From positions 77,635 to 141,634 of the forward strand of contig JAQTQC010000001.1 in the NCBI GenBank assembly GCA_028712505.1: DNA of 64,000 nt, read 5' to 3'. Numbering within the stretch: the first letter of the stretch is position 1; each line of letters opens with the position of its first letter. Below are positions 6,001 to 8,189 of the stretch, piece by piece. Position numbers: made by a program. Source of the DNA: Candidatus Omnitrophota bacterium (GTDB lineage Bacteria > Omnitrophota > Gorgyraeia > Gygaellales > Profunditerraquicolaceae).

Positions 6001-8189
6001 AAATGGCAGAGGGGTAGATAATATTAAATGCTGAAGATAGTTTCGCCTGTAACCAGCTGTTCAGAAGTTAAGGCCGTTATAAAGGCCGGTGCCGATGAGA
6101 TCTATTGCGGAGTTATGCCTTTTGACTTATTGAGGAAATACGGATTTGCTTCTTGTTTGAACAGAAGACCGAACCTGTTTTCAAACCTCCACGGATATAA
6201 TGAACTAGAGGAATTGGTTAATTTAGCGCATGCGGAAAATGTGCCGGTAGGGCTGACGATCAATGAGTTTTATCCGCAGACACAGATCGAATTAGCCTGG
6301 GAACAGTTTGAGAGAGGGCTTGGGTGCGGGGTAGATGCCTTTATCGTTTCTGATATAGGATTATTATGTAGGATAATTAAGGAAAAACAAAAAAACGATC
6401 ATTTTAAAGTACATATCAGTAATTGCGGAACGACCTTTAATTCGGGGACTGCTGAATTTTACAGGGGGCTCGGCGCCTCCAGGATAATTTTGCCCAGAGA
6501 TCTAAGTATTGGCGAGGTTGTTGATTTAGCCGGTTTGCTGCCGGCGGAGATGGAAACAGAAGCCTTTATTCTTAACCAAAGATGCCATAATATAGACGGG
6601 TTTTGTACCTTTCAGCATGGAATCCTCCCGGGTAGAAAGATTGTTCCGGTTGGCGCCCTCGGGAGTTTTGTCGCAGGCATGATGCCCGCTTGGCTCTTAA
6701 GATCCGCCCAAAGGTCTGCGGTTGAAAATGGATTAGCTTGTTGTTTGGATTATGAGATAAAGTCGGTAGATGGGTCGGTTGATATTAAAACGGTGAATTC
6801 GTATTACGAAAACAGGGCGCGTAGTTTTCTGGACAGCTGCGGGGCATGTGCTATATATGATTTAAACACCGCGGGAATCAAGTTTTTAAAGATTGTGGGC
6901 AGGTGTTTGGCTTCAGATAAAATTCGGGATATCCGCTTTATCAGGGCTTGCGTGGGTTTATTGGATTCTGTAGTTGTCAGGAGTGAATTTGGACAGGCGG
7001 TTCAAATGTTGAGGAAAAAGTTTTTTGGTTCCGAAAAAGGATGTGGTCGGGAGTATTGTTATTATTGAGGCGTGGATAATTTAGGTATTGTGCATTTATG
7101 GAAAAAGCATTACATATTTCCAGATTGTCGGATTTTAAGTTTTGGCGAGCTGAACATTCGCGGATATATTTTGGTAATGAGTTTTGCGATCGGCTGATTC
7201 CCTCTGAAGAGGAGCTTGACAGGGTTTTATCTTTTGCGGCTGGGAGAAATTTGGGCTTCACCCTGTTGACGACTTTTTGTACCGACAAGAACCTGCATAG
7301 TTATAAAAAATTGTTTGATTTGCTCTCGCAAAGCAGGGCGGATGCGGAGATAGTGATAAATGACTGGGGCCTTCTGAAAATCGCAAAAAATTATCCTTTT
7401 GATTTGGTTTTGGGAAGGTTGTTGAATAAACAAAAAAGAGGCCCTAGAATTATAGGGGTTATTGAAAGGCTTCCTGAGTTGATGCGGGAGAGATTCAGAA
7501 AAAGCGGGATTAACGGATATTTTAGCGCGTTTTTGTTGGATTGCGGGATAAAGCGCGTCGAATTGGATAATTTGTTGCAGGGGGTATCTTTGGATGAATT
7601 CAGGGGTAAGGGGATCTGCTGTTCTTTATACATACCTTTTGGTTACATTACCGTATCGCGTTCATGTCCGCATAGATGCAGGAGGGATTTATCGTCAGAT
7701 ACGGTAGCAGACAGCATATGCCGTAGGGAGTGTTTGGAAAACCGTTACTGGTTAAGACACCCTCAGATGCCGGTTCCGTTAATTTCAAAAGGTAACGCGG
7801 TATTTTTTGAGAATAAGATTATCCCTGAATTCATCCTTTATAAGGGAGGCGTAGTTAATAGGATTGTTTATGAAGCGGAGGCTTGATTCCAGGCAGTCAT
7901 AATTATTTTTATCCCGTTGGATAAGAAGATTTTAAAGGCTTGACAAGGCTGTGGTTTGTGGTATATTTAAAGAAATAAGTAGGGACCTTTAAGTCCAGCT
8001 CTGTGAAGCTGGCAAGGCAAATAAGATGAATAAGGATGTATTAAAAAATATAGACCCTTGGCAAAAGAAGCCAGGGGTATTTTTTTTGCACAGCAAGTGA
8101 CATGCGACGTAGGGGCGGCGTACTTGCTTTTCAGGTAAAGCAAGGTACCGGCTATTTTCTAAGACTGAGTGTAAGGGGTAAGTAGATAA

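Follow-up and report, generated by a model that had tools for sequence, protein, structure and literature searches.

A UbiU/UbiV-like pair of U32-family proteins at the end of a radical-SAM and glycosyltransferase gene array in an Omnitrophota genome

A stretch of 64,000 nucleotides from an uncultivated anaerobe, a Candidatus Omnitrophota bacterium (assembly GCA_028712505.1, contig JAQTQC010000001.1, positions 77,635 to 141,634 of the forward strand; in the following called the window) contains two adjacent open reading frames (ORFs) for proteins of the U32 type. ORF1 (6028–7068, + strand) encodes a UbiU-like U32 TIM-barrel protein of 346 amino acids, the putative large subunit, and ORF2 (7098–7886, + strand) a UbiV-like U32-fold protein of 262 amino acids, the putative small subunit; both begin with ATG, are co-oriented and are separated by a spacer of 29 bp. 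Because of the fold, the homology of ORF1 to UbiU, the UbiV-type ligand layout of ORF2 and the conserved tight adjacency of the genes, the two products would very probably form an iron-sulfur heterodimer of the UbiU/UbiV type, and the locus would then represent a UbiU/UbiV-like two-subunit system outside Pseudomonadota. Even chances are given to the fuller interpretation that the pair is an iron-sulfur oxidase, probably an O2-independent hydroxylase, which serves a pathway for an envelope glycolipid or glycopolymer.

Both proteins are present with identical sequences in public records of metagenome-assembled genomes (MAGs) of Candidatus Omnitrophota, ORF1 as "U32 family peptidase" (MDD5128105.1) and ORF2 as "hypothetical protein PHO40_00420" (MDD5128106.1). 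At E ≤ 1e-3, 276 homologue clusters were found for ORF1 and 342 for ORF2; since homologues are numerous and the adjacency is kept across bacterial and archaeal phyla, these are genuine genes and not chance ORFs.

Cysteine layout and structure of the two proteins

ORF1 is matched by the Pfam family PF01136 (Peptidase_U32) with 82.7 bits (gathering cutoff 22.4), which places it in the U32 superfamily, and it contains the CX6C core (C186-X6-C193). A profile of 30 family members was aligned by hhalign with E. coli UbiU at a probability of 99.3% (E = 8.8e-21) over residues 2–197, i.e., through the barrel as far as the CX6C motif; with a UbiV-family profile the probability was 95.6%. The original prediction of an adjacent UbiU-like/UbiV-like pair, the first member of which is a U32 protein with conserved cysteines, is borne out by these data and by those for ORF2 given below. 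The invariant cysteines of ORF1 number eight and not four. They are found in 30 of 30 members as C27, C186-X6-C193, C238, C271-X2-C274 and C339-X3/4-C344, the protein of the window having the X4 form of the last motif.

The canonical U32 cysteine motif is CX6CX15CX3/4C, and that of UbiU is CX6CX16CX38C (PMC6747719). ORF1 does not show the canonical arrangement. Its spacer between C193 and C238 has 44 residues, the canonical value of 15 being found in short archaeal members, and throughout the family the next cysteine follows the third one after X32–46 instead of X3/4, which resembles the distal fourth cysteine of UbiU. The ligands of a cluster in ORF1 would be C186, C193, C238 and either C271 or C274. 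The four extra invariant cysteines suggest an additional metal site, probably made up of C27, C339, C344 and the remaining cysteine of the CxxC motif. An AlphaFold model of ORF1 is a TIM barrel with a predicted local distance difference test (pLDDT) value of 77.6, confidence being low precisely at the cysteine loops.

ORF2 has no match to Pfam or NCBIfam models at E ≤ 0.1, and among the matches listed, 120 of 120 homologues are without a precomputed Pfam domain. The search with PF01136 and PF16325 which had been proposed as a check thus recovers ORF1 through PF01136 and gives no match for ORF2; being blind to ORF2, PF01136 would have missed half of the pair. By BLASTP no similarity between ORF1 and ORF2 was detected. 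The model of ORF2 is a confident one (pLDDT 86.8, predicted template-modelling score 0.87). Its best solved structure in a Foldseek search is PDB entry 5D88 (E = 4.6e-6, template-modelling (TM) scores 0.50/0.53), i.e., the U32 peptidase Mk0906 from Methanopyrus kandleri, which is the only solved U32 catalytic domain; the next match (E = 4.8e-4) follows at a distance of about 100-fold, so that 5D88 is well ahead of generic TIM barrels. The model of ORF1 has the same best match (E = 5.9e-7), with other barrels close behind. Both models thus have the U32-type TIM-barrel fold, but sequence identities to Mk0906 are 11–13% and TM scores about 0.5. Searches of the PDB sequences with phmmer and with profiles gave only a marginal match to 5D88 for the ORF1 family (E = 0.14) and none for that of ORF2.

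In the ORF2 family four cysteines are invariant (30 of 30 members), with the spacing C30-X156–163-C190-X15–18-C208-X3-C212. The original prediction had pointed to the N-terminal motif RIYFGNEFC, which is indeed present at residues 22–30, and to two C-x3-C motifs. Both of these exist in the protein of the window (C190/C194 and C208/C212), but the first is not a feature of the family, C194 being a cysteine in only 3 of 30 members. Since only C30, C190, C208 and C212 are invariant, the conserved motif is C-Xn-C-X15–18-C-X3-C and not two CxxxC pairs.

Comparison of the ORF2 family with the single E. coli UbiV sequence by hhalign was uninformative, as was the same comparison for a bona fide U32 family (A2), and therefore a UbiV profile was needed; it was built from 58 diverse sequences of a representative library. 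The ORF2 family aligned with it nearly from end to end (208 columns, E = 1.2e-4) at a probability of 54%, only a moderate value, which reads as that of a distant relative rather than a member of UbiV. In this alignment C30, C190, C208 and C212 of ORF2 fall on C39, C180, C193 and C197 of UbiV, respectively, and N88-D89 on N95-D96. The four UbiV cysteines have been established by experiment as [4Fe-4S] ligands, and their layout (CXnCX12CX3C, with the first cysteine far upstream) was noted as peculiar to UbiV (PMC6747719). ORF2 has this layout, with X15–18 replacing X12, and C30, C190, C208 and C212 would be its cluster ligands. Since the cysteine quartet coincides with the UbiV ligands and the profiles align over the full length, ORF2 would appear to be a distant UbiV-like U32 protein which is overlooked by present models.

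The two proteins are predicted to be the subunits of a U32 iron-sulfur oxidoreductase, each TIM barrel most likely binding a [4Fe-4S] cluster. As with UbiU-UbiV (YhbU-YhbV), the [4Fe-4S] heterodimer of U32 proteins with which E. coli makes ubiquinone independently of O2, the genes are adjacent and co-oriented, with the larger U32 gene first; this order, large before small, is also that of ubiU-ubiV in Pseudomonadota (PMC11707229). Resemblance to UbiU and UbiV thus stands, but curated thresholds argue against membership of the pair in the UbiU, UbiV, TrhP or RlhA families proper, with which it had been compared. ORF1 reaches 69.2 bits with the UbiU equivalog NF047963 (cutoff 440), with only its N-terminal 194 residues, and 51.4 bits with the TrhP equivalog NF011996 (cutoff 534), with its N-terminal ~190 residues; no NCBIfam match of the RlhA type was found for either protein at E ≤ 0.1, the YdcP sequence itself not having been compared directly. 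In addition to these scores, the pair differs from UbiU-UbiV in the four added invariant cysteines of ORF1, in its hosts, which are non-proteobacterial anaerobes, archaea and members of the candidate phyla radiation (CPR) and DPANN, and in its neighbouring genes.

Distribution of the pair and its genomic surroundings

Relatives of ORF2 occur patchily, at 266 places among 185,579 species-representative genomes. For the study of neighbourhoods 80 of these were kept, all from MAGs or single-cell genomes. The bacterial hosts in this set belong to Omnitrophota, Planctomycetota, Dehalococcoidia/Chloroflexota, Thermodesulfobacteriota and other "delta" lineages, Actinomycetota and Paceibacterota, and the archaeal ones to Bathyarchaeia, Hadarchaeota, Undinarchaeota and Nanoarchaeota. 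Between bacteria and archaea the pair has 40–45% identity. Six-frame searches with profile hidden Markov models yielded 96 ORF2-like matches, 54 of which have an ORF1-type U32 gene directly upstream on the same strand by strict criteria; about 10 more are added when truncated envelopes are allowed (~70% in all). For the rest, the partner is directly downstream in about 8 cases and within 4 kb in 3, while the locus has no partner at all in 14 cases and 6 matches are situated at the end of a contig. The gaps between the two genes range from -83 to +56 bp. Tandem duplications of the whole pair were also noticed, with three pairs in locus L076 and two each in L078 and L081 (Omnitrophota, Undinarchaeota).

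All neighbouring proteins were clustered and the cluster representatives were annotated. Three types of neighbourhoods emerged, which follow the taxonomy of the hosts and the sequence subclade of ORF2 alike. Type B, to which the locus of the window belongs, is found in Omnitrophota, Planctomycetota, DPANN and CPR. Its neighbours are B12-binding radical S-adenosylmethionine (SAM) enzymes (26 loci, 65 genes), SPASM radical-SAM enzymes (19), membrane proteins of the PMT_2/GT-C glycosyltransferase kind (16+6), family 2 glycosyltransferases (GT2; 12+8), DegT aminotransferases (8), a second, larger type of U32 protein, a flavoprotein which belongs to the PRK07208 group and weakly resembles UDP-galactopyranose mutase, and, in 12 loci, a zinc-ribbon radical-SAM enzyme of the TrsS/Tes superfamily (205 bits with TrsS, cutoff 490; 170 bits with Tes, cutoff 450). 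The ORF2 subclade of the window comprises loci L009, L012, L014, L016 and L025; clusters of radical-SAM, GT-C and GT2 genes surround four of the five, and the fifth, L012, is cut at a contig edge.

Type A neighbourhoods are those of Bathyarchaeia, Dehalococcoidia, Hadarchaeota, Actinomycetota and some Desulfobacterota (type A-like loci: L001, L002/L030, L013, L015, L023, L024, L038, L039, L043, L045, L047, L048, L054, L055 and L065). Here the pair is accompanied, often within one operon, by two distant GlcD-like flavoproteins, an HdrD/TfrB-like CCG protein and the alpha and beta subunits of an electron-transfer flavoprotein (ETF), and this set of flavin adenine dinucleotide (FAD), CCG and ETF proteins is a candidate for the electron-transfer partners of the U32 enzymes. 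In type C (Thermodesulfobacteriota) the gene order is reversed, or ORF2-like genes are orphans. The surroundings of orphans are heterogeneous and share no common theme: a flippase-like gene with GT2, RND efflux, LipA/DnaJ and MCM-like genes were seen. About 8 kb from one orphan ORF2-like gene, in a radical-SAM/GT2 cluster of an uncultured archaeon, a gene for a short prephenate dehydratase domain was noticed (L006–L008, 1–261, - strand); it deserves mention, prephenate having been proposed to donate the oxygen in U32 hydroxylases, but may be a coincidence.

In the window itself the pair is preceded on the same strand by a B12-binding radical-SAM enzyme of 483 amino acids (37–1488; PF02310 and PF04055), the array having at least four such genes, of which this is the final one; an SGNH/GDSL hydrolase or acyltransferase (1478–2434; PF13472, PF00657) of 318 amino acids according to the public gene call (11442–12398 in L011, a locus of the source contig that extends upstream of the window), the ORF as listed starting at 1433 and not at 1478; a SPASM/twitch-like radical-SAM enzyme of 365 amino acids (2457–3554; PF04055 with 46 bits, weak NCBIfam matches to ScmE, twitch radical-SAM and HpnH); and a polytopic membrane protein of 773 amino acids with a GT-C (PMT_2-like) N-terminal domain (3556–5877; PF13231 at E = 7e-4, below the gathering score). 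A gap of 150 bp separates this last gene from ORF1, and no strong promoter was found between them (5877–6028).

Upstream of the window, L011 continues on one strand with three B12-radical-SAM genes, a PMT_2 protein, two unknown genes and two larger U32 paralogues in tandem, so that L011 and the window together read B12rSAM-359-483-PMT_2-B12rSAM-U32big-U32big-B12rSAM-B12rSAM-SGNH-rSAM-GT-C-U32-ORF2 (rSAM standing for radical-SAM). The paralogues, of 399 and 393 amino acids (L011 6074–7273 and 7277–8458, at distances of about 4 kb and 1.5 kb from the start of the window), lie between B12-radical-SAM genes. They have conserved cysteines at about positions 74, 171, 181, 185 and 217 and a C-terminal CX4CX2CX2C motif; one of them barely matches PF01136 and the other faintly. 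This larger type was also found in L016, L025, L031 and L058.

On the downstream side the pair would end the unit because the pyr operon is preceded by a strong promoter of its own and by a PyrR attenuator (7940–8087, + strand), which form a boundary outside the system of the pair. The promoter (TTGACA-16-TATATT, extended TG, 11 of 12 matches) is close to the sigma-70 consensus. The leader, with a terminator-like hairpin at 8054–8078, precedes pyrR-pyrB-pyrC, and Rfam RF00515 (PyrR) is matched over its full length at 7982–8087 with 49.6 bits (E = 3.3e-5), just below the gathering score of 54. A functional link between the pair and the pyr operon was considered and rejected, since promoter and leader are separate and the synteny with pyr exists only in the closest relative, L012.

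Possible function and other explanations

With its two genes the pair would thus close a long array of co-oriented genes for B12-radical-SAM, radical-SAM, SGNH and GT-C membrane proteins, and most likely it performs an O2-independent oxidation, probably a hydroxylation, on an intermediate of the pathway of this array. Hydroxylase chemistry, with prephenate as presumed oxygen donor, is inferred by analogy, because every characterized U32 iron-sulfur enzyme is tied to O2-independent, prephenate-dependent hydroxylation (PMC10990095, PMC11574389). The type B clusters look like clusters for tailoring an envelope glycolipid, a polyprenyl-linked glycan or a surface glycopolymer, and the intermediate would be a compound of this class, not a base in RNA or a precursor of ubiquinone. 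An envelope substrate is suggested because the subclade of the window is located in radical-SAM/GT-C/GT2 clusters wherever its neighbourhood is visible; of the two substrates considered in the original prediction, the genomic context thus favours the envelope over RNA. The setting of the pair in such a cluster, and not in a pathway for quinones or RNA, makes a new substrate probable.

Similar neighbours, i.e., B12-, SPASM/twitch- and Tes/TrsS-like radical-SAM enzymes, are known from radical-SAM clusters for the tailoring of lipids and glycans (Tes/Mss, Grs, Hbs, Hgm, Cds; HpnH/HpnJ). Tes, Mss, Grs, Hbs, Hgm and Cds tailor membrane lipids, and in Planctomycetes and Omnitrophota the genes for Hbs homologues are clustered with tes or mss (preprint 10.1101/2023.10.20.563219); homologues of Mss and ElbD are present in Omnitrophota MAGs. 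However, the neighbours of the pair reach none of the equivalog cutoffs (Tes 170/450, TrsS 205/490, HpnJ 121/578), and their assignment as hopanoid, ladderane, BchE or true Tes enzymes was rejected on these grounds. In the literature on such clusters no U32 protein has been reported.

Several points weigh against this interpretation. The known U32 substrates, which are ubiquinone precursors, tRNA U34 and rRNA C2501 only, the electron acceptor and the chemistry in vitro being open (PMC10990095), are all aromatic or heteroaromatic at the carbon concerned, and a cluster for glycans or lipids offers no obvious substrate of this kind. The same pair, with 40–45% identity across domains, occurs also in the FAD/CCG/ETF context, and ORF2 also as an orphan; these contrasting contexts could mean a common small-molecule substrate which is unrelated to the envelope genes. 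The neighbourhood counts were obtained with a simple ORF picker on MAG contigs, and co-transcription of the pair with the upstream genes was inferred from the spacing only. As to the family assignment, the ORF2–UbiV profile match was moderate, and in a lenient Pfam scan PF01136 matched none of 30 ORF2-family members even at E ≤ 10.

The explanation which competes best, although rather unlikely, would be a U32 iron-sulfur redox enzyme, not necessarily a hydroxylase, which acts on a common soluble metabolite or cofactor in all lineages and is merely co-located with its neighbours or feeds a building block or electrons to them. The identity between bacterial and archaeal pairs would fit, as would the three unrelated types of neighbourhood, including the operons with GlcD-like, CCG and ETF genes, and the extra cysteines of ORF1, which suggest an added site for electron transfer. 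On the other hand, the type of context tracks the sequence subclade, as expected for substrate specialization, and two or three tandem pairs in one locus fit diversified tailoring better than a single housekeeping reaction. Instead of pointing to a common soluble substrate, the FAD/CCG/ETF module may be what accepts the electrons of the U32 enzymes, a component so far missing.

An RNA hydroxylase would be in line with the other characterized U32 functions but is quite improbable. TrhP (YegQ) and YrrN/YrrO are responsible for 5-hydroxyuridine in tRNA (ho5U34) and RlhA (YdcP) for 5-hydroxycytidine in 23S rRNA (ho5C2501) (PMC11574389, PMC10990095). All of these share with the pair the U32 TIM barrel with the CX6C core and, presumably, an iron-sulfur cluster and prephenate-dependent hydroxylation. 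Bacillus subtilis uses an adjacent U32 pair, yrrN-yrrO, which could be counted in favour of this function together with the weak N-terminal match of ORF1 to the TrhP model. That match, however, remains at 51 bits against a cutoff of 534, the Peptidase_U32_C domain (PF16325) was not detected in ORF1 by the Pfam scan, and the fourth cysteine is not at X3/4. RlhA has two U32 domains in one long polypeptide (PMC6747719), whereas the pair consists of separate genes for 346 and 262 amino acids. No genes for RNA modification or translation adjoin the pair in any annotated locus, and a distribution over 266 places in 185,579 species genomes, with multiple tandem copies in some loci, argues against such a role.

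Very unlikely is also the task of UbiU/UbiV itself, or an analogous ring hydroxylation for a prenylated quinone or another aromatic lipid. By profile and cysteine layout UbiU/UbiV are the closest characterized relatives, with the same gene order, and in one related locus (L005) a UbiA-family prenyltransferase is encoded four genes upstream. The UbiU score of 69 bits against a cutoff of 440 and the lack of any NCBIfam match for ORF2 speak against it. A check for ubi and men genes had been proposed: all window ORFs from 140 amino acids upwards were annotated, and no SCP2/UbiT, ubi, men, futalosine or shikimate genes were found among them or in the 11 Pfam-annotated related loci; the gene set of a UbiTUV pathway is thus missing from the regions covered. 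Moreover, the ORF2 family is present in DPANN archaea and Paceibacterota, and an incomplete electron transport chain has been reported for Omnitrophota (preprint 10.64898/2026.06.07.730766).

A role as peptidases of the PrtC collagenase type, which the family name, the public label of ORF1 and the counting of U32 genes as collagenases in metagenomics (PMC9534799) would imply, is hardly credible in view of the invariant multi-cysteine motifs of the iron-sulfur type, the operons with redox or biosynthetic genes, N-termini of which neither looks like a signal peptide by eye, the present treatment of the U32 family as iron-sulfur oxidases (PMC6747719, PMC11574389, PMC10990095), and the outcome of the Pfam scan, in which the collagenase C-terminal domain PF16325, named beforehand as a feature that would contradict a hydroxylase pair, was not detected in either protein.

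Going beyond the envelope hydroxylase favoured here, one could perhaps speculate, with considerable doubt, that the pair founds a widespread and hitherto overlooked class of two-subunit U32 iron-sulfur hydroxylases in uncultivated anaerobes of both bacteria and archaea, which oxygenate membrane-spanning lipids, glycolipids or polyprenyl-linked glycans without O2. The lipids would be built by the neighbouring Tes-like, Hbs-like and B12-radical-SAM enzymes, and the long-sought acceptor of the electrons would be the FAD/CCG/ETF module, which shares an operon with the pair in Bathyarchaeia, Dehalococcoidia and Hadarchaeota. For an anaerobic route to hydroxylated envelope lipids no enzyme was named in the preprint on lipid tailoring (10.1101/2023.10.20.563219).

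Two-subunit U32 systems of the UbiU/UbiV-like kind are already known. New here are the divergent, unannotated small subunit, the extra cysteines of the large subunit, the new hosts and the new genomic partners; in the literature on U32 proteins with radical-SAM or glycosyltransferase clusters, on lipids and on archaeal UbiUV homologues, the pair, the ORF2 family and such clusters with U32 genes were not described. Because the small subunit is undetected by domain models and "hypothetical" everywhere, surveys of U32 enzymes overlook half of the system; the U32 genes of Bathyarchaeota are still tallied as collagenases (PMC9534799). Two leads can be taken from the loci: a non-aromatic, or at least non-quinone and non-RNA, class of substrates in the tailoring of envelope lipids or glycans of Omnitrophota, Planctomycetota, DPANN and CPR, and a flavoprotein/CCG/ETF set dedicated to the pair, which could take the place of the electron sink that is missing so far. 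Should the substrate be a lipid, this would bear on the sources of hydroxylated or otherwise modified tetraether lipids, which serve as palaeoclimate proxies.

Other genes of the window

Further genes for glycan tailoring were noted on the + strand at 38447–45663, between two radical-SAM arrays. They encode a carbamoyltransferase, two paralogous SGNH proteins with tetratricopeptide repeats (TPR), a flavoprotein resembling amine oxidases and UDP-galactopyranose mutase, and a TPR protein; the family of the flavoprotein recurs near U32 pairs in other loci. The second array (49229–62920, + strand) has the very unusual density of eleven consecutive radical-SAM genes, among them three SPASM types, a fusion of GT2 and radical-SAM (50348–52270) and a B12-binding member (52286–53827). 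Ahead of it, at 45699–49212, are an ABC-2 permease and an ABC ATPase of 906 amino acids, in a layout which resembles that of Wzm/Wzt glycan exporters. The region 45699–62920 is apparently a second surface-glycan cluster.

Within the pyrimidine operon, a protein of 412 amino acids without significant Pfam match is encoded between pyrC and carA (10931–12169, + strand), and a membrane methyltransferase of the PEMT/ICMT family between fpg and pyrK (17668–18378, + strand). An operon for a V/A-type ATPase (subunits E, DUF2764, A, B, D, I and c) occupies 20788–27823 (+ strand). Two further genes on the + strand, for 667 amino acids (30878–32881) and 333 amino acids (36963–37964), gave no Pfam match at E ≤ 1e-5.

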